Shown piece by piece: positions 5,278-64,000 of a stretch of 64,000 nt of DNA. A program made the translations under genes and the position numbers. The notes beneath the pieces were generated by a model that ran no database searches, was not told the DNA's origin, and saw only the letters and a list, made by a program, of their open reading frames with translations. Within the stretch, counting starts at the first letter, position 1. The number at the start of each line of letters is the position of its first letter. Source of the stretch: Squalus acanthias (Eukaryota); assembly GCA_030390025.1 (NCBI GenBank), contig JASTWF010000034.1:682001-746000 (forward strand), in the 5' to 3' direction.

Positions 5278-5526
5278 AATGCAAAAAATAATAGCACAGT
5301 GAAACATGGTTTACAGATTTAATGGCTGGATATAGAGAGTTACCAGGGACACCAACAGCAGCAACGAATGAAGAATAGTAATACAGTTAGCAAAGGTTTG
5401 CAGGGTTAATAGCTGGATAGAGAGACTTACCTGGAGCAACAACTGCAGCAAGGAGGGGAGAGTAAATGACAAGAACAGTAATACAGTAAAACATGGTTAA
5501 CAGAATAGCTGGATAGAGAGACTTAC

Positions 5527-5791
5527 CAGGAACACCAACAGCAGCAAGGAGCGGATAGTAAATGTATTGAACAATCAGAAGTGCGAAATAGATCCGATCG
5601 TCTAATGATAGCCAATCATAATATTCTGAAAGAAAGTCAAACTCCCAGCTGAAACTCCTGCCCATTGTTGTAGCATTCCAATCTACTGTTCTCAGATTCT
5701 GATCCATTGTTGTAGCATTCCAATCTACTGTTCTCAGATTCTGATCCATTGTTGTAGCATTCCAATCTACTGTTCTCAGATTCTGATCCAT
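5527..5791 (-). CDS. Exon 1 of GPR139/GPR142-like class A GPCR (paralog A); exon 2 lies outside the window
   Basis: ATG at 5791; 88 codons +1 nt: (MDQNLRTVDWNATT)x3-MGRSFSWEF...IYYPLLAAVGVP, then phase-1 donor G|GTAAGT at 5527/5526; clear paralog of exon 1 at 51694-51916. Confidence 0.85.
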
Positions 5792-5920
5792 TGTTGTAAC
5801 ATTCCAATCTACTGTTCTCAGATTCCGACTCCCTCTCTGTGGAGCAGCGCGCTGATCCCTGTCAGTGCCGGAGGTGATGCTCTCACTGACACTATGGGAT
5901 AACACATTGAAAGGAGTCCC

Positions 5921-6065
5921 TTATTAATAGAAGAGGGAAACACTGCACTGATACAATCAGAGTCCATGGAGACAGACATTAATTACAGTCACGAAACAAA
6001 CATCTTCAGTTAACCCATGGAGACTGACATTAATTACAGTCACTGAACAAACAGCTTCAGTTAAC
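5921..6065 (-). promoter_or_regulatory. Putative promoter of paralog A: TATA-like TATTAATAA plus duplicated 51-bp element containing TAATTAAT
   Basis: TTATTAATA on + at 5921-5929; ttcagttaac at 6005 and 6056 (period 51); near-identical inverted copy upstream of paralog B. Confidence 0.55.
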
Positions 6066-12705: not shown

Positions 12706-15700
12706 GTATACAGTGGAGGTCCCCAGGTTTCAGAAGCCGGGGCTGGAGGGAGGTATACAGTGGAGTTCCCCAGTGTTCAGTACTGGTGGGTGGTATCCAC
12801 TGGAGTTCCCCAGGGTTCAGTACTGGTGTCTCGAGGGAGGTATACAGTGGAGCTTCCCAGGGTTCAGTACTGGGGCTGGAGAGAGGTATACAGTGGAGTT
12901 CCCCAGTGTTCAGTACTGGTGGGTGGTATCCATTGGAGTTCCCCAGGGTTCAGTACTGTTGTCTGGAGGGAGGTATACAGTGGAGTTCCCCAGGGTTCAG
13001 TACTGTTGTCTGGAGGGGGGTATATAGTGGAGTTCCCCAGGGTTCAGTACTGTTGTCTGGAGGGAGGTATACAGTGGAGTTTCCCAGGGTTCAGTACTGG
13101 GGTCTGGAGGGAGGTATACAGTGGAGTTCCCCAGGGTTCAGTACTGGGGTCTGGAGGGAGGTATACAGTGGAGTTCCCCAGGGTTCAGTACTGTTGTCTG
13201 GAGGGGGGTATGTAGTGGAGTTCCCCAGGGTTCAGTACTGTTGTCTGGAGGGAGGTATACAGTGGAGTTCCCCAGGGTTCAGTACTGGGGTCTGGAGGGA
13301 GGTATACAGTGGAGTTCCCCAGGGTTCAGTACTGGGGTCTGGAGGGAGGTATACAGTGGAGTTCCCCAGGGTTCAGTACCGGGGGCTAGAGGGAGGAATA
13401 CAGTGGAGTTCCCCAGGGTTCAGTACTGGGGTCTGGAGGGAGGTACACAGTGGAGTTCCCCAGTGTTCAGTGGTGGTGTCTGGGGTGAGGTATACAGTGG
13501 ATTTCCCCAGGGTTTAGAACAGGGGGCTGGAGGTAGGCAAACACTGGACATACCCAGGACGCTGTACTTGGGGCTAAGAGGGAGGAATACAGTGGAGTTC
13601 CCCAGGGTTCAGTACTGTTGTCTGGAGGGAGGTATACAGTGGAGTTCCCCAGGGTTCAGTACTGTTGTCTGGAGGGAGGTGTACAGTGGAGTTCCCCAGG
13701 GTTCAGTAGAGTTCCCCAGGGTTCAGTACTGGGGTCTGGAGGGAGGTATACAGTGGCGTTCCCCACAGTTCAGTACTGGGGGCTGGAGGGAGGTAAATAG
13801 TGGAGTCACCAGGGTTCAGTACTGGGGTCTGGAGGAAGGTATACAGTGTAATTCCCCAGGGTATAGTACTGGGGGCTGGAGAGTGGTATACAGTGGAGTT
13901 CCCCAGGGTTCAGTACTGGGGTCTGGAGGGAGGTATACAGTGGAGTTGCCCCAGGTCCAATACTGGGGGCTGGAGGGAGGTACACAGTGGAGTTCCCCAG
14001 GGTTCAGTAGCAGGGGCTGGAGGGAGGTATACAGTGGAGTTCCCCAGGGTCGAGTACTGGTGTCTGCGGGGAGGTATACACTGGAGTTCCTCAGGGATCA
14101 TTACTGGGGGCTGGAGGGAGGTATACTGGTGTCTGGAGGGGGTTATACAGTGGAGTTTCCCAGGGTTCAGTACTGGTGTCTGGGGTGAGGTATACAGTGG
14201 AGTTCCCCAGGGTTCAGAAGCCGGGGCTGGAGGGAGGTATACAGTGGAGTTCCCCAGGTTTCAGTACTGTTGTCTGGAGGGGGGTATACAGTGGAGTTCC
14301 CCTAGGTTCAGTACTGGGGGTCTGGAGGGAGGTATACAGTGTAATTCCACAGGGTTCAGTACTGGGGGTCGGGAGGGAGGTACACAGTGGAGTTTCCCAG
14401 GGTTCAGTACTGGTGTCTGGAGGAAGATATACAGTGGATTTCCTCAGGGTTCAGTACAGGGGAATGGAGGGAGGTATACAGTGCAGTTCCCCAGGGTTCA
14501 GTGCTGGGGTTTGGAGGGTGGTATTCAGTGGAGTTCCCCAGGGTTCCGTTCTGGGGGCTGGCGATAGGTATGCTGTGGAGTTCCCCAGGGTTCAGTACAG
14601 GGATCTGGAGAGGAAATACAGTGGAGTTCCCCAGGGTTCAGACGCAGGGGCTGGAGGGAAGTATACAGTGGAGTTCCCCAGGGTTCAGTTCTGGAGTCTG
14701 GAGGGAGGAAAACTGTGGAGATGCCCAGGGTTCAGCACTGAGGGCTGGAAGGGTGTATACAGTGAGTTCCACAGTGGTCAGTCCTAGGGACTGGAGGTAG
14801 GTATACAGTGAGTTCTACAGGGTTCAGTACTGTGGGCTGGAGGGAGTTATACAATTAAGTTCCCCAGTGTCCAGTGCTGGGGGCTGGAGGGAGGTATACA
14901 GTGGAGTTCCCCAGGGTTCAGTACTGGGGGCTGGAGGGATGTATACAGTGGAATTCTCCAGGGTTCAGTACTGGGGGCTGGAGGGATGTATACAGTGGAG
15001 TTCTCCAGGGTTCAGTGCTGGGGGCATGAGGGAGATATATAGTGGAGGTCCCGAGGGTTCATACTGGGGGCTGGAGGGAGATATACAGTGGAGGATCCCA
15101 GGTTTCAGTACTGCGGGCTGGAGGGAGGTATATAATGCAATTCCCCAGGGTTCCGTATTGGGGGCTTGAGGGAGCTACACAGTGCTGTGCCGCAGGGTTC
15201 CGTAGTAGGGGATGGAGGGAGGTATACAGTGGAGTTCCCCAGTGTTCAGTACTGGGGGTTGGAGGGAGGTATACAGTGGAGTTCCTCAGTGTTCAGTACT
15301 GGGGGTTGGAGGGAGGTATACAGTGGAGTTCCCCAGTGTTCAGTTCTGGGGGCTGGAGGGAGTTATACATGGGAGTTCCCCAGGTTTCAGTACTGGGGGC
15401 TGGAGGGAGATATATAGTGTAGTTCTCCAGAGTTCAATACTGGGGTCTGGAGGGAGGTACTCTGTGGAGATCCCCAGTATTCAGTACTGTGTGCTGGAGG
15501 GAGGAATACAGTTATGTTCCCCAGGGATCAGTAATGTTGTCTGCGGGGAGGTGTACATTGAAGCTCCCCAGGGTTCAATACTGTGGGCTGGAGGGAGGTA
15601 TACAGTGGAGATCCCGAGGGTTCAGTACTCTGGGTTGGAGGGCGGGATATAGTCGAGTTCCCCAGGGTTCAGGACTGGTGTCTGCGGGGAGAAATACAAT

Positions 15701-18700
15701 GGAGTTCCCAAGTATTCAGTACTGGGGGCTGAAGGGAGGTACACAGTAGCGTTCCCCAGGTTTCAGTACTGGGGGTTGGATGGAGGTATACAGTGGAGTT
15801 CCCCAAGGTTCAGTACTGAGGGCTACTGGGAGGAATACAGTGGAGTTCCCCAGGGTTCAGTACTGGTATCTGGTGGGAGGTATACAGTGGAGTTCCCCAG
15901 GGTTCAGAACTAGTGTCTGAGCGGAGATATACCGTGGTGTTACCTAGGATTCAGTACTGGAGCCTGGAGCGAGGTATACAGTACAGTTCCCTAGGTATCA
16001 GTACTGGGGGATGGAGGGCGTTTTACAATGGTGTTCCCCAGGTTTCAGTATTGGTTTCTGGGGGGAGGAGTACATTGGAGTTTCCCAGGATTCAGTACTG
16101 CTGTCTGGGGGGAGGTATACAGTGGAGTTCCCCAGGGTTCAGTCCTGGGGGCTGGACGGAGGTATACAGTGGAGTTCCTCACGGTTCAGCACTTAAGGTA
16201 TTGAGGGAGGTATACATTGGACTTCCCCAAGGTACAGTACTGGAAGCTGGTGGGAGTTATACAGTGGAGTTCAGTACAATGGGCTGGAGGGAGGTATAGA
16301 GTGGAGTTCCCCAGGGTTCAATACTGGGGGTTGGAGGGAGGTATACAGTGGGGTTTCTCAGGGTTCAGTACTGGATGTTGGTGGGTGGTGTACAGTGGAG
16401 TTCCCCAGGGTTCAGTACTGGAGGCTGGAGGGAGGTATACAGTAGAGTTCCCCAGGGTTCAGTACTTGGGCCAGTAGGGAGATATACAGAGGTGTTCCCC
16501 AGGGATCAGTACTGGGCTCTGGAGGGTGGAGTACAGTGAAGTTCCCCCAGGTTCAGTCCTGGGGTCTGGAGGGATGTATACAGTGGAGATCCCCAGAGTT
16601 CAGTTTTGGGGGCTGGAGGGAGATAAACAGTGGATTTCCCCAGGGTTCATTACTAGGGGCTGGAGGGAGCTATATAGTGGAGTTCCCCAGGCTTCATTAC
16701 TGGCGTCTGGAGGGAGGTATACTGTGGAGATCCCCAAGGTTCAATACTGATGTCTGGAGGTAGGTATACAGTGCTGTTCCCCAGGGTTCAGTACTGGGGT
16801 CTGGAGGTAGTAGACAGTGCTGTTCCCCAGGGTTCAGTACTGGGGTCTGGGGTGAGGTATACAGTGGAGTTCCCCACGGTTCGGTACTGTGGGCTGGAGG
16901 TAGACATACAGTGGTGTTCCGCATTGTTCAGTACTCGTGTCTGCAGGGAGCTATACAGTGGAGTTCCGCAGGTTTCAGTACTGGGGTCTGGGGGGAGGTA
17001 TACAGTGGAGTTCCCCAGGGGTCAGTACTGGGGTCTGGGGGGAGATATACAGTGGAGAGCCCCAGGGTTCTGTCCTGGGGTCTGGAGGGACGAATACAGT
17101 GTTGGTCCCCAGGATTCAGTACTGGGGAATGGAGGGAGGTATACAGTAGTGTTTCCCAGTGTTCAGTACTGGTGTGTGGGAGGAGATATACAGTGGAGTT
17201 CGCCATCGTTCAGTACTCGGGGCTGGAGGGAGGGATACAGTGGAGTTCCCCAGGGATCAGTACTGGTGTCTGGGGGAGGTTTACAGTGGAGTTTCCCAGG
17301 GTTCAGTACTGGTGTCTGGGGCGAGATATACTGTGTAGTTCCCCAGTGTTCAGGACTGGTGTCTGGGGGGAGATATAGTTTGGAGTTGCCCAGGGTTCAG
17401 TACGGGGGGCTGGAGGGAATTTATACAGTGGAGTTCCCCCGCATCCAGTACTGGGGGGCTGGAGGGAGGTGGGCAATGGAGTTGCTCAGCGTTCAGTACT
17501 GGGGTCTGGAGGGTGGTACGCAGTGGAGTTTCCCAGGGTTCAGTACTGGGGTCTGGACGGAGGTATACAGTGGAGTTTCGCAGGGTTCAGTGTTGGGGTC
17601 TGGAGGGACGTATACAGTGGTTTTCCCCAGGGTTCAGTACTGAGGGCTGGAGGGAGGTATACAGTGGAGTTCCCCAGGGTTCAATACTAGGGGCTAGAGG
17701 GATGTATACTGTGGAGATCCCCAGAGTTCATTACTGGGATCTGGAGGGAGGTATACAGTGGCGATCCCCAGGGTTCAGTACTGTGGGCTGGAGGGAGATA
17801 TACAATGGATTTCCCCAGGGTTCAGTACTGTGGGCTGGAGGGAAGTATACATTGGAGTTCCCTAATGTTCAATACTGGAGGCTGGAGAGTGGTATACAGT
17901 GGAGTTCCCCAGGGTTCAGTACTGGAGGCTGGAGGGAGGTATACAGTAGAGTTCCCCAGGGTTCAGTACTTGGGCCAGTAGGGAGATATACAGAGGTGTT
18001 CCCCAGGGATCAGTACTGGGCTCTGGAGGGTGGAGTACAGTGAAGTTCCCCCAGGTTCAGTCCTGGGGTCTGGAGGGATGTATACAGTGGAGATCCCCAG
18101 AGTTCAGTTTTGGGGGCTGGAGGGAGATAAACAGTGGATTTCCCCAGGGTTCATTACTAGGGGCTGGAGGGAGCTATATAGTGGAGTTCCCCAGGCTTCA
18201 TTACTGGCGTCTGGAGGGAGGTATACTGTGGAGATCCCCAAGGTTCAATACTGATGTCTGGAGGTAGGTATACAGTGCTGTTCCCCAGGGTTCAGTACTG
18301 GGGTCTGGAGGTAGTAGACAGTGCTGTTCCCCAGGGTTCAGTACTGGGGTCTGGGGTGAGGTATACAGTGGAGTTCCCCACGGTTCGGTACTGTGGGCTG
18401 GAGGTAGACATACAGTGGTGTTCCGCATTGTTCAGTACTCGTGTCTGCAGGGAGCTATACAGTGGAGTTCCGCAGGTTTCAGTACTGGGGTCTGGGGGGA
18501 GGTATACAGTGGAGTTCCCCAGGGGTCAGTACTGGGGTCTGGGGGGAGATATACAGTGGAGAGCCCCAGGGTTCTGTCCTGGGGTCTGGAGGGACGAATA
18601 CAGTGTTGGTCCCCAGGATTCAGTACTGGGGAATGGAGGGAGGTATACAGTGGTGTTTCCCAGTGTTCAGTACTGGTGTGTGGGAGGAGATATACAGTGG

Positions 18701-21372
18701 AGTTCGCCATCGTTCAGTACTCGGGGCTGGAGGGAGGGATACAGTGGAGTTCCCCAGGGATCAGTACTGGTGTCTGGGGGAGGTTTACAGTGGAGTTTCC
18801 CAGGGTTCAGTACTGGTGTCTGGGGCGAGATATACTGTGTAGTTCCCCAGTGTTCAGGACTGGTGTCTGGGGGGAGATATAGTTTGGAGTTGCCCAGGGT
18901 TCAGTACGGGGGGCTGGAGGGAATTTATACAGTGGAGTTCCCCCGCATCCAGTACTGGGGGGCTGGAGGGAGGTGGGCAATGGAGTTGCTCAGCGTTCAG
19001 TACTGGGGTCTGGAGGGTGGTACGCAGTGGAGTTTCCCAGGGTTCAGTACTGGGGTCTGGACGGAGGTATACAGTGGAGTTTCGCAGGGTTCAGTGTTGG
19101 GGTCTGGAGGGACGTATACAGTGGTTTTCCCCAGGGTTCAGTACTGAGGGCTGGAGGGAGGTATACAGTGGAGTTCCCCAGGGTTCAATACTAGGGGCTA
19201 GAGGGATGTATACTGTGGAGATCCCCAGAGTTCATTACTGGAATCTGGAGGGAGGTATACAGTGGCGATCCCCAGGGTTCAGTACTGTGGGCTGGAGGGA
19301 GATATACAATGGATTTCCCCAGGGTTCAGTACTGTGGGCTGGAGGGAAGTATACATTGGAGTTCCCTAATGTTCAATACTGGAGGCTGGAGAGTGGTATA
19401 CAGTGGAGTTCCCCAGTGTTCAGTACTGGTGTCTGGGGGTAGGTGTTCATTGGAGTTGCCCAGGGTTCAGTACTGTGGGCTGGAGGGAGGTATAGAGTGG
19501 AGGTCCCAAGAGATCAGTACTGGCGTCTGGGTGGTGAGGTGTACAGTGGATTTCTCTGGGTCCAGTACTGGTGTTGGGGGGAGGTGTACAGTGGAGCTCC
19601 CCAGGGTTAAGGACTGATGTCTGGGGGGAGATATACAGTGGAGTTCCCCAGGGTTCACTACTGGTGTCTGGGGGCAGGTGTACAGTGGAGCTCCCCAGGG
19701 TTATGGAATGGTGTCTAGGGGGAGGTATACAGTGGAGTTCCCCAGGTTTCAGTACTGGGGTCTGGGGGGAGGTGTACAGTGGAGTTTCCCAGGGTTCAGT
19801 ACTGGGGTCTGGAGGGAGATATACAGTGGAGTTCCCCAGGGTTCAGTACTGGGATCTAGGGGGAGATATACAGTGGAGAGCCCCAGGGTTCTGTCCTGGG
19901 GTCTAGAGGAACGAATACAGTGGAGGTCCCCAGGATTCAGTACTGGGGAATGGAGGGAGGTATACAGTGGTGTTTCCCAGTGTTCAGTACTGGTGTGTGG
20001 GAGGAGATATACAGTGGAGTTCGCCATCGTTCAGTACTCGGGGCTGGAGGGTGGGATACAGTGGAGTTCCCCAGGGAGAAGTACTGGTGTCTGGGGGAGG
20101 TTTACAGTGGAGTTTCGCAGGGTTCAGTTCTGTTGTCTGGGGCGAGATATACAGTGTAGTTCCCCAGTGTTCAGGACTGGTGTCTGGGGGGAGATATAGT
20201 TTGGAGTTGCCCAGGGTTCACTCCGGGGAGCTGGAGGGAATTTATACAGTGGAGATCCCCCGGATCCAGTACTGGGGGGCTGGAGGGAGGTGTGCAATGG
20301 AGTTGCTCAGCGTTCAGTACTGGGATCTGGAGGGTGGTACGCAGTGGAGTTCCCCAGGGTTCAGTACTGGGGTCTGGACGGAGGTATACAGTGGAGTTTC
20401 GCAGGGTTCAGTGTTGGGGTCTGGAGGGACGTATACAGTGGTTTTCCCCAGGGTTCAGTACTGAGGGCTGGAGGGAGGTATACAGTGTAGTTCCCCAGGG
20501 TTCAATACTAGGGGCTAGGGGGATGTATACTGTGGAGATCCCCAGAGTTCATTGCTGGGATCTGGAGGGAGGTATACAGTGGCGATCCCCAGGGTTCAGT
20601 ACTGTGGGCTGGAGGGAGATATACAGTGGATTTCCCCAGGGTTCAGTACTGTGGGCTAGAGGGAAGTATACATTGGAGTTCCCTAATGTTCAATACTGGA
20701 GGCTGGAGAGTGGTATACAGTGGAGTTCCCCAGTGTTCAGTACTGGTGTCTGGGGGTAGGTGTTTATTGGAGTTGCCCAGGGTTCAGTACTGTGGGCTGG
20801 AGGGAGGTATAGAGTGGAGTTCCCAAGGGATCAGTACTGGCGTCTGTGTGGTGAGGTGTACAGTGGATTTCTCTGGGTCCAGTACTGGTGTTGGGGGGAG
20901 GTGTACAGTGGAGCTCCCCAGGGTTAAGGACTGTTGTCTGGGGGGAGATATACAGTGGAGTTCCCCAGGGTTCACTACTGGTGTCTGGGGGGAGGTGTAC
21001 AGTGGAGCTCCCCAGGGTTAAGGAATGGTGTCTGGGGGGAGATATACAGTGGAGTTACCCAGGGTTCAGTACTGGGGTCTGTAGGGAGGTATACAGTGGA
21101 GATCCCCAGGTTTCAGTACTGGGTTCTGGAGGGAGATATACAGTGGAGTTCTCCAGTGTTCATTCCTGGGGTCTGGAGGGAGGTATGCAGTGGAGTTCCC
21201 CAGGGTTCAGTACTGGGGTCTGTAGGGAGGTATACAGTGGAGATCCCCAGGGTTCAGTACTGGGTTCTGGAGGGAGGTATACTGGGAAGTTCTCCAGTTT
21301 TCATTCCTGGGGTATGGAGGGAGGTATACAATGGAGTTACCCAGGGTTCAGTACTGGGAGCTGGAGGGATAT
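12706..21372 (+). repeat. 47-bp satellite array (about 180 monomers; consensus CTGGAGGGAGGTATACAGTGGAGTTCCCCAGGGTTCAGTACTGGGGT), CR1-RT derived, with higher-order repeats
   Basis: ctggaggg at 13104 and 13151 (period 47); translates to WREVYSGVPQGSVLG; identical ORFs recur at a 1504-bp offset. Confidence 0.95.
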
Positions 21373-51419: not shown

Positions 51420-51600
51420 GTTAACTGAAGCTGTTTGTTCAGTGACTGTAATTAATGTCAGTCTCCACGGGTTAACTGAAGTTGTTTGTTTAGTGACTGT
51501 AATTAATGTCAGTCTCCATGGACTCTAATTGTATCAGTACAGGGTTTCCCTCTTCTATTAATAAGGGACTCCTTTCAATGTGATATCCCATAGTGTCAGT
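51420..51600 (+). promoter_or_regulatory. Putative promoter of paralog B: two copies of a 51-bp element (TGTTTGTT, TAATTAAT), TATA-like TATTAATAA at 51556-51564, Inr-like TCAGT near 51596
   Basis: gttaactgaa at 51420 and 51471; TATA-like box 130 nt upstream of the first ATG; conserved in paralog A. Confidence 0.55.
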
Positions 51601-51693
51601 GAGAGCATCACCTCCGGCACTGACAGGTATCAGCGCGCTGCTCCACAGGGAGGGAGTCGGAATCTGAGAACAGTAGATTGGAATGTTACAACA

Positions 51694-51916
51694 ATGGATC
51701 AGAATCTGAGAAAAGTAGATTGGAATGCTACAACAACGGGTCGGAATCTGAGAACAGTGGATAGGAATGTTACAACAATGGGCAGGAGTTTCAGCTCGAA
51801 TATTAACTTTCGTTCAGTATTTTATGATAGACTATCATTAAACTATCGGATAAAGTTGGCACTTCAGATTACTCAAATGATTTACTATCCCCTCATTGCT
51901 GCTGTTGGGGTTCCTG
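51694..51916 (+). CDS. Exon 1 of GPR139/GPR142-like class A GPCR (paralog B)
   Basis: ATG 51694 (ACAATGG); 74 codons +1 nt ending IYYPLIAAVGVP, donor G|GTAAGT at 51916/51917; joins exon 2 in frame to give GVPVNLVTIVIL. Confidence 0.88.
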
Positions 51917-52064
51917 GTAAGTCTCTCTATCCAGCTATTCTGTTAACCATGTTTTACTGTATTACTGTTCTTGTCATTTACTCTCCCCTCCTTGCTGCGG
52001 TTGTTGTTCCAGGTCAATCTTTAGAAACATGTTGTTCTTGTTCTAGTTCTAGTTTCAGGCAATA

Positions 52065-52625
52065 GAGAAATGAACTGGGAATTGAATTCCAGGACTGAGG
52101 CGGGAGCAGTCTAATTTAGGCATCTCTGGGAATGAAATTCCTGGATTCAGGCGGGAGCATTTTAATCTAGGCAGCCCTGGGAATGAAATTCCTGGACTGA
52201 GATGGGAGCAGTGTAATCTAGGCAAACCCGGGAATGAAATTCCTGGACTGAGATGGGAGCACTGTAATCTAGGCAGCCCTGGGAATGAAATTCCTGGACT
52301 GAGGCGGGAGCAGTGTAATCTAGGCAGCCCTGGGAACGAAATTCCTGGACTGAGATGGGAGCAGTGTAATTTAGACAGCACCGGGAATGAAATTCCTGGA
52401 CTGAGATAGGAGCAGTGTAATCTAGGCAGCCCTGGGAATGAAATTCCTGGACTGAGATGGGATCAATGTAATCTAGGCAGCCCTGGGAATGGAATTCCTG
52501 GACTGAGATGGGAGCAATGTAAACTAGGCAGCCCTGGGAATGAAATTCCTGGACTGAGATGACAGCAGCGTAAACTAGGCAGCCCTGGGAATAAAATGCC
52601 TCGATTGAGGCGGGAGCAGTGTCAC
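52065..52625. repeat. 51-bp intronic tandem repeat (GGGAATGAAATTCCTGGACTGAGATGGGAGCAGTGTAATCTAGGCAGCCCT), about 11 copies
   Basis: 17-aa periodicity in minus ORF 52055-52381; direct inspection. Confidence 0.93.
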
Positions 52626-52685
52626 GTAGGCGAGTCCCATCACTGGGATCATCTCTCGGATCCTGCCGTTTAGGACCATTTATAC

Positions 52686-55250
52686 GAACAAACGAACATA
52701 CGAATTAGGAGCAGGAATAGGCCAATCGGCCCTTCGAGCCTGCTCCGCCATTCAATAAGATCATGGCTGATCTGATTACTCCACATTCCCGTCTACCTCA
52801 GATAACTTTTCACCCTCTTGCTTACCAAGAATCTATCTACCTCTGCCTTAAAAATATTAAAACACTCTACTTCTACCGCCCTCTGAGGAAGAGAGTTCCA
52901 AAGACTCACGATCCTCTGTGAAAAAACATTCTCCTCATATCTGTCTTAAATGGGCGACACCTTAATTTTAAACAGTGACCCCTAGTTCTACATTCTCCCA
53001 CAAGAGGAAACATCCTCTCCACATCCACTCTGTCCAGACCCCTCAGGATCTTATATGTTTCAATCAAGTCACCTCTTATTCTTCTAAACTCCAACGGATA
53101 CAAGCCTAGACTGTCCAACCTTTCCTCATAAGAATACCCACCCATTGCCGGTATTAATCGAGTAAACCTTCTCTGAACTGTTCCAACGCATTTACATCCT
53201 TCCTTAAATAAGGAGTCCAATACGGTACACAGTACTCCAGATGTGGTCTCACCAATGCCCTGTATAACTGAAGCATAACCTTGCTACTTTTGTATTTACT
53301 TCCCCCCGCAATAAACGATAACATTCTATTAGCTTTCCTAATTATTTGCTGTACCTGCATAGTAACCTTTTGCGATTCATGCACTGGGACATCCAGATCC
53401 CTCTGCATCTCAGAGCTCTGTAATCTCTCACCATTTAGATAATATGCTTTTTTATTCTTCCTGCCAAAATGGACAACTTCACATTTTCCCACATTATACA
53501 CCATTTGCAAGATCTTTGCCCATTCACTTAACTTATCTATATCTCTTGGGAGCCTCCTTATGTCCTTTTCACAATTTGCTTTCCTACCTATCTTTGTGTC
53601 ATTAGCAAATTTAGCAACCATACCTTCGGTCCCTTCATCCAAGACATTTATATAAATTGTAAAATGTTGAGGCCCCAGCACTGATCCCTGTGACACACCA
53701 CTCGTTACATCTTGCCAATTAGAAAATGACCCATTTATTCCTACTCTCTGTTTACTGTTAGCTAGCCAATCTTCTATCCATGCCAATATGTTACCCCCTA
53801 CACCATGAACTTTTATTTTCTCAATAACCTTTGATGTGGCACCTTATCAAATGCCTTCGCGAAATCTAAGTACAGTACATCCATCGGTTCCCCTTTATCC
53901 ACAGCACCTGTTACTTCCTCAAAGAACTCCAATAAATTGGTTAAATATGATTTCCGTTGCACAAAACCATGTTGACTCTACCTGATTACTTTGAGCTTTT
54001 CTAAATGCCTGCTATAATGTCTTTAATAATAGCCTATGACAGATGTTAAGCTAACTAGCCTGTAATTTCCTGCTTTCCGTCTCCCTCCCTTTTTTGAATA
54101 AAGGAATTACATTCGCTATATTCCAATCTAATGGAACCTTACCCGAATCTAGGAAATTTTGGAAAATGTAAACCAACGCATCAACTATCTCACTAGCCAC
54201 TTCTTTTAAGACCCTCGGATGAAGTCCATCAGGACCCGGGGACTTTTCAGCCCGCAGCTCCAACAATTTTCTCAATGCCACTTCCCTGGTGATAATAATG
54301 TTCTTGAGTTCCTCCGTCCCTTCCACTTCCTGATTTATAGCTAGTTCTGGGATGTTACTTGTATCCTCAAAATGAAGACCGATGCAAAATACCTGTTCAA
54401 TTCAACTGCCATCGCCTTATTTTCCATCATTAATTCCCCAGACTCACTTTTTATAGGACCAACGCTCACTTTGTTGACACTTTTCTTTTTAAAATATCTA
54501 TAGAAACTCTTACTATCTGTTTTTATATTTTTGCTAGCTGCTTTCTCTCGTACTCTAATTTTTCTCTCCTCATTAATCTTTTAGTCATTCTGTGCTGTTT
54601 TTCATATTCTGTCCGATCTTCTGATCTGCCAGCCATCTTTGCGCAATTATATGCTTTTTCTTTAAGTTGAATATTATCTTTAACTTTTTTAGTTAACCAC
54701 GGATGGTGGGTCCTCCCCTTGGAATTTGTTCTTTCTTATTGGAATGTATATATTCTGTGTATTCTGAAATATCCCCTTAAATGTCTGCCACTGCAACTCT
54801 ATTCACCTATCCCTTAAACAAATTTGCCAGTTCACTTTAGCTAGCTCTGCTATCATGCCCTCATAATTGCCCGTATTTAAGTTTAAAATACTCGCCTTGG
54901 ACCCACTCTGTTCTGTCTCTCAAATTGAATGTAAAATGCAATCATTTTATCGCTGCTACCTAGGGGCACCTTCACTATGAGGTTATTAATTAATCCTATC
55001 TCTTTGCACAATAACAGGTCGAGTTTCGCTCCAGAACGTGATGTTGTAAGAAACTATCCCGAAAACAATCCATGAACTCCTCATCTATGCTGCATTTGCC
55101 CATCTGATTTTTCCAGTCTATATGCAGATTAAAATCCCCCATGATTAATTAAGAGAGCCACCCTTCCACCTTTTCCCACCTGCCTGTCCTTCCTAAATGT
55201 TATTTACCCTTCAATATTCAGGTCCCAATCATTGTCATCCTGCAGCAATA
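52686..55250 (-). mobile_element. CR1 LINE (APE C-terminal part to 3' end), degenerate
   Basis: ORF 53154-53786 SGVSQGSVLGP...FANDTK...RPHLEYC; ORF 54051-54326 KSPGPDGLHP. Confidence 0.9.
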
Positions 55251-56475
55251 TAAAAGAAAATAAAGGAAGGAGGAGAGAGCGGGAGGAGCGGCCGGTGATA
55301 AAGGAGGGCGAGAGAATCCGGACCATAAAGAGAAGAAATGGTCAATAGATGATGATTTTTTTAAATATTGAGTTGAATTTTGTTAAGTTAGTTAATAGTC
55401 TATTAAATAGAGGCATGGCAGGGCACCTCAGTCCGGTGGAATGTACATCTTGTGCCTTGTGGGATCTCCAGGACACTGCCCACGGATTTCGGAGATTGAG
55501 CAGCAGCGGGCGTCACTGCGGTGCATCCGTGAGGCTGAGAGTTACGTGGATAGCACGTTTCAGGAGGTGCTCACCCCGCAGCATAAGAGTGAGCGGGCAG
55601 AGAGGGAATGGATGAGCGCCAGACAGACAAGGAGGACTATGCAGTTAGTGCAGGAGTGTACTGAGTGCATCTCACTCTCTAATGTTCGATGTTCCCTCTG
55701 GGGAGTGCAGCCCAAGCCAAATCCACGGCACCACGCGGGGCTCAGTTGTAGGTCGGGGGAGGAGGAAGATCGGGAAAGCAACAATGATAGGACATTCGAT
55801 TAGTTAGGAGAACAGACAAGCCTTTCTCCGGCCACAGAAGTGACTCCAAGACGATATGTAGCCTCCCTGGTGCCAGGGTCAAGGATGTCACTTAGTGGCT
55901 GCAGGACATTCTGAGGGGGGAGGTATCGGTATCAACAACATAGGTAGAGAGAGGGATGTGATCCTGCGGGCAGATTATAGGGAGCTAGGAAAGAAATTAA
56001 GAAGCAGGACCTCGACGGTAGTAATCTCCAGATTACTCCCGGTGCCACCAGCTGGTGATTATAGAAATAGAAGGATAGAGCAGATGATTGTGTGGCTGGA
56101 GATATGGTGCAGGAGGGAAGGCTTTAGATTCTTGGGACATTGGGACAGGTTCTGGGGGAGATGGGACCTGTAGAGGCCGGTCGGATGGCACCTCAACAGA
56201 GCTGGGAGCAATATCCTCATGGGGGCGGGGAGGTTTGCTAATACTGTTGGGGAGGGTTTAAACTAATCTGCCAGGGGAATGGGCACCAGGATGTGGCATT
56301 AGAAAGGAGAAACAAGGTGCACAAAGGATTGGGAGAGACAGATAACAGTTGATTAAGGAAAAGTACGGTGTTAGGTGGAGTCAGAATAAGAGAGAATCCA
56401 AGAAGGTCTAAGATAGAAACAGAAAATGCTGGAAACACTCAGTAGGTCAGGCAGCATCCGTGGAGAGAGAATCAG

Positions 56476-56512
56476 AGTTAATGTTTCAGGTCTGTGACCC
56501 TTCGTCAGAACT
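56476..56512 (-). ncRNA. Second hammerhead motif in the inverted arm (palindrome mutated to ACAU)
   Basis: Minus strand AGUU-CUGACGA-A-GGGUC(ACA)GACCU-GAAA-CAUU-AACU. Confidence 0.55.
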
Positions 56513-56878
56513 GGAAAAAGTTAGAGATGCAACAGATTTTAACCAGGTGCAGGGGCAGTGAAAGGAGGGAGGGGAGGAAATAACAAAAGGGTGGAAGGCA
56601 GGAGTGGTTAAATGTTGCAAATAGGGATGGCAGAATCATCAACAGCTGCCGCCTGAGCTGCAGTCAGAGTGGGAGTGGAGCGGAGAATTAAAGTGACAAG
56701 CGCTCCACTCCCACTCTGACCTCTCTGTCCTCGGCCTCTTACAACGTAAGCTCGAGGAACAACACCTCATCTTTCTATTCACAGGCCGACCCTTTTATTA
56801 TTTCCTCTCCCCACCCCCCCGCCCGCCTTACCCTGCCCCTACACCTGCTTAAAACCTGTTACCTCTCTAAACTTCTCC

Positions 56879-56915
56879 AGTTCTGACGAAGGGTCATCGA
56901 TCTGAAACGTTAACT
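56879..56915 (+). ncRNA. Minimal type I hammerhead ribozyme motif in the Penelope-like repeat
   Basis: AGUU-CUGACGA-A-GGGUC(AUC)GAUCU-GAAA-CGUU-AACU: core boxes, stem II, palindromic ACGU and stem I AGUU/AACU. Confidence 0.65.
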
Positions 56916-57027
56916 CTGTTTGTCTCTCCACGAATGCTGCCTGACCTGCTGAGTTTTTCCAGCATTTTCTGTTGTTATTTCAGATTTTCAGCATCCGCAG
57001 TGTTTTGCTATTGTAAGGTCTAAGATA

Positions 57028-57488
57028 AAAGAAAAACTTACATTTATACAGCGCCTTTCACGATCACCAGACATCTCGAAGCGTTTTACAGTCAATGAAT
57101 ACTTTTGGAGTGTAGTCATTGTTGTAATATGAGAAATGCCGCAGGCAATTTGCGGAAAGCAAACTCCTATAAACAGCAATGTGATAATGATCAGATAAAC
57201 TGTTTTTGTTATGTTGATTGAGGGATAAATATTGGCCAGGATACCGGGGATAACTCCACTACTTTTCTTCAAACTAGTGCAATGGGATATTTTACGTCCA
57301 CCTGAGAGAGCAGACGGGGCCACGGTTTAACATCTCATCTGAAAGACGGCACCTCTGACAGTGCAGCACTCCCTCAGTACTGCACGGGAGTGTCAGCCTA
57401 GATTTATGGGCTCAAGTCCCTGGAGCTTGGAACCCACAACCTCTGACTGAGAGGCGAGTGTGCTACCTACTGAGCCACAGCTGACACT
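57028..57488 (-). mobile_element. Deu-domain tRNA SINE (SacSINE1-like), full length
   Basis: Minus head GTGTCAGCTGTGGCTCAGTAGGTAGCAC...GGGTTCCAAG; central GGAGTGCTGCACTGTCAGAGGTGCCGTCTTTCAGATGAGATGTTAAACCG; L2-like tail AGGCGCTGTATAAATG. Confidence 0.8.
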
Positions 57489-58912
57489 GTCAGATAGGTT
57501 TACAATGCATGTGTGTAAACGCACGAAGAGTGGTAAATAAGGTTGGTGAGCTGCAGGCGCAAATAGCGACATAGGCAAATGATGTTGTGGCAATAACAGA
57601 GACTTGGCTCAAAAAGGGCAGGATTGGGTACTAAATATTCCTGGATATAAGATGTTCGGGAAAGATAGGGAAGGAAACAAAGGAGGTGGGTTTGCAATAT
57701 TGATTAAGGAGAATATTACAGTGCTGTAGAGAGAGGGTGTCTTGGAGGGGTCAAGGACACAATCTATTTGGTTAGAGTTAAAGAACAATAGAGGTACCAG
57801 TACACCGCTGGGTGTATTCTATATGCCACCAACTAGGAGGAAGGATATAGAGGAGCAAATCTGCAGGGGAATTACAGTGTGGTGGAAGAAATATAGAGTA
57901 GCAATAATGGGGGACTTCAATTGACCTAATATTCACTGAGATAGCAATAGTTTAAAGGGCAGAGAGGGGGACGAATTTCTGAAGTGAGTTCAAGAGAACT
58001 TTCCTGATTGGTGCATTTCTGGCCCAAAGAGAAGGATCCAGTTCTGTGGAGTGGGGTAGCTAAAGTGGAGCAAGTGTCAGTAAGGGTACATTTAGGGAAG
58101 AGTGATCATTGTATCATATGGTTCAGATTAGCTATGGAAAAGGACAGGGAGCAATCTAGAGTAAAAATACTTAAAAGGAAGAGGGCCAATTTCAGTGGGT
58201 TGAAAACGGAGCTGGCCTGTGTAAATTGGAATCAAAGATTGGCAGGCAAAATTGTAATCGAACAATGGGCTGCCTTTACAGAAGAGATGATTGAGGTACA
58301 ATCGAGGGACATTCCCACGGGGGGGGGGGATATGGTAGTGCAGCCAAAGCCAGAGCTCACTGGATGACGAAACAAATCGTGGAAGTTGGAGGTGAGAAGA
58401 AGCAAGAATAGGGGGCGTATGACAGACGTCAAGTTCAGTACACAAGTGAGAACATGGCTGAATATAGAAAGTTCAGAGAGGAAGTGAAAAAGGAAATAAG
58501 AGGGGGAAAGAGAGAGTATTAGAATAGATTGGCAGCTAACATAAAATGGAATCCAAAAGTCTTCTATATTCATATAAATATTAAACGGGCAGCAAGAGGA
58601 GGGATGGGGCCGTTTAAGGACCAAAAAGGAGACCTACGAATGGAGGCCGAGGGCATGGCTGAGATACCAAATGAATGCTTTGCATCTGTCTTTACCAAGG
58701 AAGAAGCTGCTGCCAAAGTCATAGTGAAAGAGGAGGTAGTTGAGATACTGGATGGGCTAAAAATTGATAGAGAAGGTACTAGAAAGGCTGGCTGTACTTA
58801 AAGTAGATAAGTCACCAGGAGCGGATAGAATGCATCCTCGGATGCTGAGGGAGGTAAGGGTAGAAACCGCGGAGTTACTGGCCATAATCTTCCAATCTTC
58901 CTTAGATGCGAT

Positions 58913-59660
58913 GGCCCAGAAATTAAACATGGCTGGTTCCCGCGGGGGTAAGGATTCCCCGCGATATCGCACTCCGCGCCTACCTTTTTGCTCCGGGCCC
59001 ACACGAACTTTAGTTTCAAAGGCTCTCTCTGTTGGAACCGTGCAGTGCTTGCGTGTCCCAGAGGCGCAATTAGTTCGTGCGAGCTCTGCGATCACGTGAT
59101 TCAGGTGGAGCCAATGGCAGCACTCCATCTTTCATTCATAGTTTTGACGGCAAGAGCTGTCAAAGCTATGAATACTACACACCCCCAAAAGAACAGCTAA
59201 ACCTCAATTAAATTTTAAAAAGCCATCACATTAATAAAATAAGTATATTTAAATAAATTAATCACTTTAAACAAAAAATTAAATTTTTGAAAAAATTTAA
59301 AATCTTTTTAAAAGTTATAAAAATAAACTTACCTTTCTTAAAGTCTCTAAAAAAGATAAACCTGTTGAAAAAAATTTAAAATAATACTTAATTAACTACT
59401 TACCTTGTTAAAAGGGGGTCGTACGCCTGCTTTCTTTGTGTGTAAAATCGTCACCACTTACCTGCGCGTTCAAAGCTGAAAAAAAACTAAGTGCACTGCG
59501 TGCGCACAGCCTGTAGTTCACTTAGGAACAACCCCTTTGCAATTCACGAAGTACCGGTTTCCCACGCACGCGCAGTGCATGCAGGAAACCGGCAATTCGG
59601 GATCGAATACGCGAGAGTACACAGTGCGTACTCTCGCGTATTAGGTTTAATTTTCGGGCC
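58913..59660. mobile_element. Non-autonomous DNA transposon (MITE), PIF/Harbinger-like
   Basis: TIRs GGCCCAGAAATTAAAC / GTTTAATTTTCGGGCC; 3-bp TSD GAT at 58910-58912 and 59661-59663; AT-rich core; cleanly interrupts the CR1. Confidence 0.82.
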
Positions 59661-59755
59661 GATTTGTTGCCAGAGGACTGGAGAATTGCAATAGTTACAC
59701 CCTCGTTTAAAAAGGGTGTAATGATAAACCCGGCAACTATAAGCCAGCCAGTTTC

Positions 59756-60392
59756 ACATAGAAACATAGAAACATAGAAGATAGGAGCAGGAGTAGGCCA
59801 TTCGGCCCCTCGAGCCTGTTCCGCCATTTAATGAGATCGTGGCTGATCATACAAATTCAGTACCCTGTCCCTATTTTCTCCCCATATCCCGTGATCCCTT
59901 TAACCTCAACAAATATATCTAACTGCTTCTTGAGATTATTTAATGATTTGGCCTAAACTGCCTTCTGTGAGAGAAATCCACAGGTTCACCACTCTCTGTG
60001 TGAAGACATTCCTCCTCATCTCAGTCCTAAATGGGTTACCCCTTATCCTTAGACTGTGACCCCTGGTTCTGGACTCCCCCGCCATCGGGAACATCCTTCC
60101 TGCATCTAGTCTGTCCAGTCCTGTTAGAATTTTATAAGTTTCAATGAGATACTCTCTCATTCTTCTAAACTCTAGCGAATATAAGCCTAATCGAACCAAT
60201 CTCTTTTTAAACGTCATTCCTGCCATCCCTGGTATCAGCGTGGTGAATCTTCGCTGCACTCTCTCCATGGCAAGAACCTCCTTCCTCAGTTAAGGTGACC
60301 AAAACTGCACACAATACTCAAGGTGTGATCGCAGCAAGACCCTGTACACCTGCAGCAAGACATCCTTGATCCTGTATTCGAATCCTCTCGCT
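59756..60392 (-). mobile_element. CR1 3' fragment, same subfamily as 8235-8710 and 21375-21900
   Basis: (catagaaa)n tail; ORF 59936-60268. Confidence 0.88.
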
Positions 60393-60733
60393 GTGGGTCA
60401 ATTTCGCGAGCAGCGTTAAAATAGTCGCTCTCGGGCGCTAAATATGTAGCGCCCCATTACACCTCCCCCCCCCCCGAAGGTGCTGAGGGGAGGTGCTAAC
60501 CCACCGACTTTCCCCCCCCCATGTTTTACTGGGTTTCTCTCTTTGTCGTTCCCCATCCCATCCGCGCTGCTGTCAGCTATTGATTCTGAAGATGATTTCA
60601 CGTTTCCAAGACTCAAATGTAAATTTATTGGAGGTGACTCTTTATTTAACGAATTTCAGTCTGCTACCGACACTGAACATTAGTGACAGATCAGAAGAAT
60701 GCTGTCTTGGTTTAGGAGACGTTTCACCTAATG

Positions 60734-60866
60734 GCGAAAGGCCATCGACCCGAAACTTTAACTCTGTTTCTCTCTCTCTCCACAGATGCTGCCTGACCCG
60801 CTGAGTATTTCCATCATTTTCTGTTTTCATTTCAGATTTCCAGTATCCGCAGTATTTTGTGTTTGT
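60734..60866 (+). mobile_element. 5'-truncated Penelope-like terminal repeat with 12-bp TSD
   Basis: TTTCACCTAATG at 60722-60733 and 60867-60878; body matches 56887-57010. Confidence 0.8.
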
Positions 60867-62180
60867 TTTCACCTAATGCTCGATATGGTTACTTACAGAG
60901 TCACAGGAACAAATCCTGGCAGATCACATCCACATCTTTAAATGTCTGAAATATCCGCTAATCATTCAGCTCCAGTCAGTGTCTCCTTTCCCACCCTCTC
61001 CAGTTCTGCATTATTGGCACTGCTTCTGATGGTTAAAGTAAGATTACAAGGATAATTTACATTCTCACAAAACGTTAATTCAGCCAAATTTCGTTCCATT
61101 TCTTTCTAATCATTGTTTTGAATTTACAATTGGATCCCATGCCCGTCTGACACAGTTCAGTGGATCTGTCAGTGAGACCCAGAGTGATTCTCTATTGCCT
61201 CCTGCTGCACTTCAGGATAAACAATCCCAGCTGATTCTAACTGAAGTACTGAGGATAAGAAAATCCTTTGATATCTTCCCGTCTAATATTCTCTGCACAG
61301 GTTGGAAACAACAGGTAAAAAAGTACAAGGAGGAAATCTCTTCCATTTGTGTTCAGATACTTTACAACAGCATTCGGCAGCACTTTGCCTGTGGGATAAA
61401 ATGTCTGATTTCGATACTGATAAATGCATTTAGTGGGACATTAGCTGGTCAATCATCACTGATTACTTTAATTCAGAGTCCATTATTTGCAAGTTACTTG
61501 GCAAATCTTCCTTTCAATGAGCTAGAATTTGAGTATTTCAACAAAAATGCAGTACACTCAATCTCCAAAACATATCTGATAGCCCAGTTATCTTTATAAC
61601 TGCAGTGCACTTGCATTTATTATCTTAGCATTGTCATATAACATCTGTACATTTTACATAAAATTGCCTGTAATTATTGCATGCCAAGGTTGGAGTTTCT
61701 GTATTTTGCTGTTGCATTCATTTTCAGTTCTAAATAGAATGGATATTCTGACCAGGAGCAGGAATCCAAGCGGGATTTCCCCTCCCTAACACAATGGCAC
61801 AGAAGCGAATTGCACCGCTCCAAATGCTGACTGAACCCGGGACACGAAGGCTTCCTGAGAGGGTTTGGTCATTTGTGTCTCTGGTACCTCGGGCGGTGCT
61901 TTTGTCTGCTGGGCTAAATTTAGATCGATCATTTAATCTCTCCTTGATCAAACATCTGTTACTTTCATGTTGTATTTATTCCCATTTCACTTATTGATTC
62001 CACAATATATTCCCGTATATTCTTGCAATAAGCCCTGTATTGAGCGCCATAGTTAATAGGATTATATTATATCATTCAATGTCGCTCGTGAGTTGCAGAT
62101 TTCACCCCGAATTCCATCAAACTGCTGCTTTTGCTCCCAGCCTGATGAATAATTTCCCTGTTTATTTCCCTTCCTCACAG

Positions 62181-63082
62181 TGAACTTAGTGACGATTGTG
62201 ATCCTTTCTCGGGGAAAGTGTGGACTATCCAAATGTGTCACTCGCTACCTGGTGGCCATGGCAGCGGCGGATCTACTGGTCGTTATCCTCGACGTGATAT
62301 TGAGGCACATTCCCATTGTTTATTGGGAACAGTTTGATTTCGTGTATTTCATCCCCGTGTGTAATATCCACGCTGTCCTGCTGTTCACAGCCACAGACTG
62401 TTCTGTCTGGTTCACCGTCACTTTCACATTTGATCGATTTGTGGCCATTTGTTGCCAGAAGCTGAAAACTAAATATTGCTCCGATCAAACGGCAGCTGTG
62501 GTTCTGGGAACAGTGACTGTGCTGAGCGGTTTAAAGAACATCACCTGGTATTTTATGTTCACAGGTCGGTATTGGCTTCAGAACAGCCCCTGGTTTTGTG
62601 ATGTCACAAAGGATGTTCAGTATTCACGGGTCTGGGGAACAATCGAGCTCCTTCATTATATTCTCACCCCGTGTGTCCCATTTGTGGTGATTGTGCTGCT
62701 CAATGCTGTCACCGTCAGACACATTTTAGTGGCCAGCAGAGCCCGCAGGAGACTCCGGGGTCCCAGCAGTGGGGAGAGTTCCAGAGACCCAGAGATGGAG
62801 AGCCGCAGGAAATCCATCATTTTACTGCTTGTTATCTCCGGCAATTTCATCCTGTTATGGGCAGTGTTTATGGTGTATTCTATATGGGGCCGGTGGTGGT
62901 ATTTGGGGTATAATTCTGTATTTCTACCTGATTATGTAATGGAACTGGGATTCATGCTGCAGCTGCTGAGTTGCTGCACAAACACTGGGATTTACGCCGT
63001 GACCCAGACTAAGTTCAGAGAGCAGTTGAAGAATGTGGGGAAATATCCCTTTACACTGATTGTAAAACTCATTAAAGGATGA
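62181..63082 (+). CDS. Exon 2 of GPR139/GPR142-like class A GPCR (paralog B), TM1 end to stop
   Basis: Polypyrimidine tract plus CAG acceptor at 62180; uninterrupted frame with AMAAADLL (TM2), CNIH, FDRFVAIC (TM3), ECL2 Cys, FILLW (TM6), CCTNTGIY (TM7); TGA at 63080-63082. Confidence 0.93.
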
Positions 63083-63139: not shown

Positions 63140-64000
63140 GTGCCCCGCACAAAGATGGCGGCTCTGGGGCCCCGCACAAAAATGGCGGCTCTGGGTCGCA
63201 GCACAAAAATGGCGTCTCCGGGGCCCCGCAGAAAGATGGCGGCTCCGGGGGTCCGCACAAAGATGGCGGCACCGGCGCTCCGCTCAAAGATCGCGGCTCC
63301 GGGGCCCCGCACAAAGATGGCGGCTCCGGGGCTCCGCACAAAGATGGCGGTTCCGGGGCCCCGCACAAAGATGTCGACTCCAGGGCACAGCACAAAGATG
63401 GCGGCTCCGGGGCCCCGCACAAAAATGTCGGCGCTGGTGTCCCGCACAAAAATGGAGGCTCCGGGACACAGCACAAAGATGGCGGCTCCGGGGCCCCAAA
63501 CAAAAGTGCGGCACTGGTGCACAGCACAAAGATGGCGGCTCTCGGGCACAGCAAAAAGATGGCGGCTCTCGGGCACAGCAAAAAGATGGCGGCTGCGGGG
63601 AAAAGCACAAATATGGCGGCTCCGGGGCCCCGCATAAAGAAGGTGGCTCTGATTGCAGCACACAAATGACGGATCTGGGGCTCCGCACAAAGTTGGCGGC
63701 TCTGGGGCCCCGCACAATGTTGGCGGCACCGGAGCACAGCACAAAGATGGCGACTCCGGGGCACAGCACAATATTGGCGGCTCCGGGTTCCCGCACAAAG
63801 GTGGCGGCTATGGTGCCCCTCACAAAAATCGCGGCTCTGGTTGCCACACAAAAATGGCGGCTCCGTGGCACCGCACAAAAATTGCGACTCTCGGGCACTG
63901 CACAAAGATGGCGGCTCCGGGGCCCAGCACAAAGATGGCGACTCTGGTTCCCGCTCAAAAATGGCGGCTCTGGGGCCCCGCACAAAGATGGCGGCTCTGG
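63140..64000. repeat. 27-bp GC/CpG-rich minisatellite (GGGGCCCCGCACAAAGATGGCGGCTCC), more than 30 copies, runs off the window end
   Basis: 9-aa periodicity GPRTKMAAP in ORF 63140-63637; direct inspection. Confidence 0.95.

Follow-up and report, generated by a model that had tools for sequence, protein, structure and literature searches.

A very large elasmobranch family of class A G-protein-coupled receptors with diversifying selection on its outward-facing residues and a putative chemosensory role

The window analysed here, a stretch of 64,000 nucleotides from Squalus acanthias, holds gene B and the first coding exon of gene A, two members of a family of orphan GPCRs (G-protein-coupled receptors) of class A with about 2,000 motif copies in the assembly. 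We are highly confident that diversifying selection acts on the outward-facing residues of this family, and it very probably acts on ligand recognition. Omega exceeds 1 on the N-terminus, ECL1, ECL2, ECL3 and the helix tops, while the transmembrane core and the inner face are under purifying selection. The whole explanation that we propose, in which the selected rim belongs to a likely chemosensory repertoire, has in our estimate a probability of about 0.5. The kind of evolution is known, and the very large family itself is apparently undescribed so far: a literature search covering mostly journals outside subscription, and including passages of PMC12294341, yielded no account of this expansion or its selection.

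The genes of the window and the size of the family

Gene B has two coding exons (51694–51916 and 62181–63082) joined by a predicted splice junction; its features are given in Table 1 with those of gene A and the tandem arrays of the window. The helices assigned to the exon 1 core come from the predicted model of a homolog with a mean pLDDT of 60. The original prediction counted the leader among the non-coding flanks; part of it is likely coding, as the 42-nt repeats are in frame and also lie within gene models of other sharks (P0004, P0006, P0009). Each repeat of gene B has one N-glycosylation sequon; family-wide, a sequon is found in 141 of 158 units, and a gene has from 1 to 7 units. Allele counts (N, amino-acid-changing; S, silent) were 21 N and 8 S in the repeat and 25 N and 5 S in the unit preceding the ATG, numbers too small to judge purifying selection. 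The repeats (51683–51777) also bear an out-of-frame ATG whose context is weaker and which first occurs 11 nt ahead of the in-frame start.

Table 1. Positions of receptor gene features and tandem arrays in the window
Feature	Positions	Strand	Remarks
Tandem array, 31 nt	4-593
Gene A, first 96 intron bases	5431..5526	-
Gene A, coding exon 1	5527..5791	-	Three 42-nt repeats + 139-nt core
Gene A, TATA-like element (putative function)	5918..5930	-	13-mer identical to that of gene B
Tandem array, 67 nt	47061-47824
Gene B, TATA-like element (putative function)	51555..51567	+	13-mer shared with gene A
Gene B, first in-frame ATG and two 42-nt (14-aa) N-terminal repeats	51694..51777	+	Likely coding; open, in frame
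Gene B, exon 1 core	51778..51916	+	N-terminal ectodomain and first part of TM1; GT donor at end
Gene B, hypervariable segment, codons 7-34	51796..51879	+	piN/piS 2.12, CI 1.38-3.50
Gene B, first 96 intron bases, non-coding	51917..52012	+	End in a degenerate repeat of the exon 1 terminus, with a second donor-like site
Gene B, intron, 10,264 nt	51917..62180	+	GT-AG; joins exons 1 and 2 in frame; predicted splicing
Tandem array, 51 nt	52075-52622
Gene B, exon 2, from the end of TM1 to the C-terminus	62181..63082	+	299 aa open; PF00001 E=1.4e-19
Gene B, TM2 top + ECL1	62300..62365	+	4 selected sites
Gene B, TM4 top + ECL2 + TM5 top	62540..62641	+	13 selected sites
Gene B, TM6 top + ECL3 + TM7 top	62876..62947	+	8 selected sites
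Tandem array, 27 nt	63142-63997

The second exon of gene A lies outside the window, about 30 kb away at G000:C2671:651594 (-), with no further family exon between it and exon 1. It has one +1 and one -1 indel and reaches a stop after 60 codons, so that gene A is probably a pseudogene, or is misassembled at exon 2. A twin at C2671:443609 differs by one residue in the exon 1 core and has an open exon 2; therefore, exon 1 of gene A stands for a live lineage. For gene B, the closest exon 1 (G000:C48:135223) is separated by six amino-acid changes, four of which raise the charge in B, and one silent change.

A 98% duplicate of the window from 53299 onward, that is, starting inside the intron of gene B, occupies G000:C2671:3270001-3290314 (L199-L201). 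Its exon 2 differs from that of B by 3 nt, all amino-acid-changing, and the 48 kb examined upstream of it contain no exon 1. Such a copy could illustrate a route of exon reassortment. Besides the arrays in Table 1, the window includes a 47-nt satellite of 185 copies (12706–21369), whose translation repeats SGVPQGSVLG; this peptide resembles a motif in the LINE reverse-transcriptase fragments of the window, and the satellite may derive from a LINE segment. Upstream of A and B, no 26-nt array reaches a score of 200.

The size of the family was estimated with a degenerate TM3-motif pattern, which gave 2,043 matches in the 3.7-Gb assembly and none for the control, a count that takes in pseudogenes and probably also allelic duplicates, since 14 of the 20 closest exon 2 pairs lie on different contigs. 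The first 100 matches listed are mostly clustered and on large contigs. Exact searches of the assembly found the exon 1 donor motif 346 times, part of these being intronic repeat copies, and two exon 2 43-mers 150 and 28 times. The sequences analysed below sample one subfamily and were picked either for resembling B or through exact motif matches. Out of 80 donor matches, 66 were real exon 1 cores (61 unique after removal of five identical copies) and 14 were set aside as intronic repeat copies or non-matching starts. Out of 113 exon 2 matches, 102 fell into the subfamily, the other 11 being divergent or partial; 89 of the 102 were open and 85 open and ungapped, the 17 removed comprising 13 broken copies and 4 with in-frame indels. 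Clusters, segmental duplicates and the broken exons (13 of 102) characterise a large multigene family with birth and death.

The family also extends beyond this genome. At E<=0.001, 2,526 proteins match it; the 120 matches listed all come from sharks, and 119 of them are labelled “probable G-protein coupled receptor 139”. Labelled elasmobranch genera in NCBI/UniRef are Heptranchias, Heterodontus, Pristiophorus, Stegostoma, Scyliorhinus, Leucoraja and Narcine, and family members were found in sharks, a skate and rays. In the supplementary files searched of PMC10770119 and PMC10115646, the GPR139 label did not occur.

Diversifying selection on the outward-facing residues

The original prediction offered diversifying selection as one reading of the fast-changing ectodomain and named family-wide dN/dS above 1 in the N-terminus and extracellular loops as its support; both the site models and the piN/piS ratios bear this out, and we take diversifying selection as the main cause of the pattern. 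In exon 1, piN/piS is 2.12 in codons 7–34 and 0.19 in codons 35–46. In exon 2, the extracellular parts, whose borders were set after the variation had been seen and rest on a low-confidence model, have a piN/piS of 1.81 (1.27–2.59) against 0.44 for the remainder; ECL1 taken alone gives 1.18, which is not significant. Variable sites in exon 1 codons 7–34 show helical spacing (periodicity p=0.003), and no significant periodicity was seen at the tops of TM5 and TM6.

For the site models we used a GY94 implementation of our own; the topologies came from FastTree, and their branch lengths were scaled by a single factor. Among the 61 exon 1 paralogs, 27% of sites have an omega of 4.5 (2dL 129 for M1a vs M2a and 119 for M8a vs M8), and 13 sites have a posterior above 0.5. 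Among the 85 exon 2 paralogs, 9% of sites have an omega of about 8.6 with a 2dL of 1331, with 27 sites selected; when exon 2 was divided into three segments, each with its own tree, 2dL was 207, 560 and 251. Selected sites carry up to 13 residues at a single codon, and 25 of the 27 in exon 2 fall within the 80 extracellular codons out of 298 (p=5e-14).

The same picture is obtained without trees. In the loops of the 20 disjoint closest exon 2 pairs we counted 69.5 N vs 3.5 S changes (omega 5.8, p=1e-4), and outside the loops of the same pairs 47 N vs 32 S (omega 0.51). For 31 pairs chosen by intron likeness alone, pN was 0.079 vs a pS of 0.032, and for 12 exon 1 pairs chosen by flank likeness these values were 0.152 and 0.067.

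Flanks, exchange between paralogs and non-adaptive change

The comparison of the two genes of the window, from which the original prediction started, was reproduced: B (51778–51916, +) and A (5665–5527, -) differ at 25 of 139 nt. Of these differences, 22 lie in codons that change the amino acid (16 codons, 15 of them within codons 7–34) and 3 in silent ones, and two sites differ in the first 96 bases of the intron. The reported switch from acidic to basic in codons 7–34 is also there (net charge -5 in A and +3 in B), but it is peculiar to B, since 56 of the 61 exon 1 copies are acidic and B is the most basic of all. Averaged over pathways, the pair is separated by 21 N changes on 104 sites and 4 S changes on 34 sites, and its dN/dS of 1.8 is not significant on its own (Fisher p=0.32), so that we rejected the pairwise value as a proof of selection. 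The excess of coding differences over the intron is significant (p=3e-5).

As to the promoter and leader, the count of three differences is correct for about 145 nt before the first in-frame ATG, but it leaves out the 84 nt adjoining the exon 1 core, in which the two genes differ at 7 sites and in the copy number of the 42-nt repeat; over 390 aligned columns upstream there are 23 differences. The idea that the flanks are specially conserved has to be given up. Among 38 paralogs with enough flank, the 25 exon differences of A and B stand at the 90th percentile (median 20) and their flank difference of 14/360 at the 34th (median 4.7%), which is ordinary for the family. Across paralogs, the median flank divergence is 0.05–0.075, a figure biased low because many exon 1 copies were recovered via intron sequence, and the silent divergence of exon 2 is 0.07; in the 12 usable of 16 copies chosen without intron sequence, the first 96 intron bases differ by 0.22. 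Homogenisation of the flanks beyond the neutral level is not supported, their divergence being like that of silent sites, and the contrast thus reflects a protein that changes fast against a background that is young or homogenised rather than “frozen” flanks.

In most copies a second donor-like site lies 95 or 96 nt downstream of the exon 1 end. This spacing does not keep the frame; therefore, the first 96 intron bases are non-coding, and read-through to the second donor was rejected as a coding variant. In gene A, too, the intron opens with a degenerate copy of the exon 1 end and a second donor-like site; a third such site is present in gene A and several paralogs.

Gene conversion, the other process named in the original prediction, receives divided support, and segment exchange between paralogs may be called partly shown. 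Across 228 silent sites, r2 declines as the distance between them grows (p=0.0005), nearest-neighbour paralogs switch between loops, and the ECL1-ECL2 correlation (0.155) is below all 40 simulations without recombination, although this is the sole one of three loop comparisons to indicate shuffling. By contrast, a PHI-like recombination test was negative, nearby sites being more incompatible than distant ones, and the 28 discordant pairs among 151 near-identical loop pairs are inside the range of the no-recombination simulations (1–82). Intron-matched pairs fall into two groups, with at most 9 or at least 21 loop changes.

These observations bear on the view that there is no adaptive diversification at all, and that gene conversion homogenising the flanks and core, relaxed constraint, local hypermutation of the loops, or assembly and polishing errors produced the pattern. 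Pairs with near-identical introns and 25–29 amino-acid-changing loop substitutions could be expected under it, as could the decay of r2, the higher piS in the loops (0.10 vs 0.06 elsewhere) and the position of both indels of gene A in variable loops. However, it predicts an omega near 1, far from the 5.8 observed in the closest pairs. Neutral simulations on seven segment trees, which imitate recombination, reached a 2dL of only 19–37 and an omega below 2 in all three runs, against the observed 1331; recombination inflates the site test, but not sufficiently for the observed values. AID-like hotspot mutation was rejected, as variable bases are not enriched in WRC/GYW motifs (p=0.19). The flanks, moreover, equal silent diversity, and the identical columns vary in 62 proteins from independent assemblies of other sharks (Spearman 0.69). 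These data largely refute the non-adaptive view, which we regard as highly improbable.

Relatives of the family and its putative role

Membership in class A is plain: PF00001 scores above its cut-off, the 7TM fold matches, and D2.50, C3.25 with the ECL2 cysteine, R3.50, W6.48, N7.49 and Y7.53 are each present in 85 of 85 exon 2 copies (P5.50 in 82). At E<=0.001 only PF00001 (7tm_1) was found, and the profile of the OR type was not matched. By sequence, the best solved structure is GPR139 (PDB 7VUG, 39 bits); a fold search singled out no relative, 7VUG being third with a model of pLDDT 60. The genome has its own single-copy GPR139 on C18 (541 bits to 7VUG) and likely GPR142, a name given for 57% identity. 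A clade of the family plus GPR139 was rejected (p-AU 4e-35), so the family members are not GPR139 orthologs. The name “GPR139” is wrong for the thousands of database entries that bear it and represents a best-hit name only.

The trees, built from 50 and 24 proteins, show the family as one group, sister to a salamander gene (P0241, P0271; support 100/100) and then to a clade of L215 and coelacanth sequences. The family, the coelacanth P0246 clade and L216 are separated from GPR139/142 and unnamed outgroups with 100/98 support in trees read as unrooted. L215 (C17) and L216 (C9) are further conserved relatives in this genome. Matches to the L215 clade come from sharks, bony fish, amphibians and reptiles, and no bird or mammal name occurs among the 120 of 145 matches listed. 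L218, L219 and L223, which were not included in the trees, form a small cluster on C12 scoring high against both the coelacanth orphan and GPR139. The salamander genes P0241, P0271 and P0274 are sister to the whole elasmobranch expansion, and this low-copy sister offers a natural model for deorphanisation.

The constant part of the receptor gives some indication of its ligands. Activation of GPR139 by Trp and Phe needs F3x33, H5x43, W6x48, N7x38 and R6x51 (PMC5430874). By an alignment to GPR139 at 28% identity, three of these five residues are kept in the 85 exon 2 copies (F3x33 as F or Y in 84, H5x43 as H in 83, W6x48 as W in 85), and the equivalents of the polar R6x51 and N7x38 are F in 83; free amino acids are thus probably not bound as in GPR139. 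Related receptors respond to peptides with aromatic C-termini (PMC8557429). Across copies there is hardly any variation in the inner face and core, which makes one signalling route for all of them likely.

Repeated segmental duplication has yielded many copies, some of which have died. For the receptor itself we suppose the following mechanism. A constant aromatic deep pocket may hold an anchor group shared by the ligands, and the variable rim (N-terminal helix, TM1 extension and three loops) would read the rest of the ligand; positive selection on this rim would retune what each copy binds, all copies presumably signalling through the same G protein. The family as a whole may serve chemosensation, as a repertoire for external cues that are varied and probably peptide-like.

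The size of the repertoire, given how few receptors are known in sharks, points to chemosensation. Current papers attribute to cartilaginous fishes a keen sense of smell served by a very small set of receptors (PMC10116579, PMC11979771). Canonical ORs number 2 and V2Rs about 34 in the catshark, and the elephant has 1,948 ORs (PMC11979771, PMC10116579), a size like the 2,043 motif copies found here. The V2R co-receptor of the catshark is described as expressed only at “moderate frequency”. A GPCR family so large, mislabelled and strongly selected on its ligand face readily suggests itself as a candidate for the missing diversity. A putative chemosensory role has about even odds, and we propose, somewhat more tentatively, that sharks and rays possess a further unrecognised vertebrate chemoreceptor family of up to ~2,000 GPR210-like receptors. 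If the role is chemosensory, the repertoire would match in size the largest odorant-receptor repertoires of mammals and would overturn the view of a shark nose with a few dozen V2Rs. Against this role, the V2R-type machinery, Go and TRPC2, is expressed in every olfactory neuron of the catshark (PMC10116579), which fits V2Rs alone. Contigs of the runs presumed to be RNA are unspliced across the exon 2 acceptor in three cases out of three and are thus uninformative on expression; in one other run, the core has a high and the loops a low summed contig depth, which in view of the identity filter and the limits of the depth measure carries no weight as evidence.

The strength of selection is a second point against a chemosensory role: omega values of 4.5–8.6 are typical of host-pathogen conflict rather than of odorant receptors. 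It is possible, though less probable than chemosensation, that the same family under the same selection consists of innate immune sensors on leukocytes or barrier epithelia, engaged in an arms race with microbial or parasite peptides, by analogy with formyl-peptide or MRGPRX receptors. The very high omega at sites with many alleles would agree with this, as would the selection still strong among the youngest pairs and the glycan-repeat stalk of variable length. On the other hand, the relatives of the lineage are GPR139/142 and neuropeptide receptors, with GPR139 as the best solved-structure match by sequence, and immune GPCR families of vertebrates are not known to approach 2,000 copies. Should the family be immune, its members would make up a germline repertoire for sensing peptides whose size is not known from other vertebrates.

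Rather unlikely, in our opinion, is a function outside the classical sense organs, in which the receptors read fast-evolving endogenous or conspecific peptides (reproductive, gamete or kin-recognition). The peptide-receptor ancestry (PMC8557429) and the constant deep pocket below a variable rim would suit it, and shark V2Rs and ORs are found also in testis and other organs (PMC11979771); however, the size of the repertoire is hard to reconcile with self ligands. The closest known systems are the following.

GPR139 and GPR142, which are activated by Trp/Phe and by peptides, share with the family the position of the intron, just before the TM1 Asn as judged from open frames, and GPR139 has in common with it the three pocket residues named above, while E3x29 and E3x32, as well as R6x51 and N7x38, are not kept. 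Beside these two receptors, Rinne et al. (2019) placed the “GPR210” orphans of coelacanth, gar and teleosts, with three subtypes (PMC6504862), and our trees likewise give three non-GPR139 lineages (L216; the L215/P0246 clade; the family with the salamander gene). The lineage of the family may correspond to GPR210. Unlike the shark family, the GPR210 genes are low-copy, in passages of that paper that deal with other vertebrates than sharks (PMC6504862).

The ancestry of the family, for which Pfam gives only 7tm_1, differs from that of the OR, TAAR, V1R/ORA and V2R/OlfC receptors and probably from that of the expanded immune GPCRs FPR and MRGPRX. It resembles the former, and probably also the latter, in being a large clustered repertoire with birth-and-death evolution, a variable ligand face and a constant signalling face.
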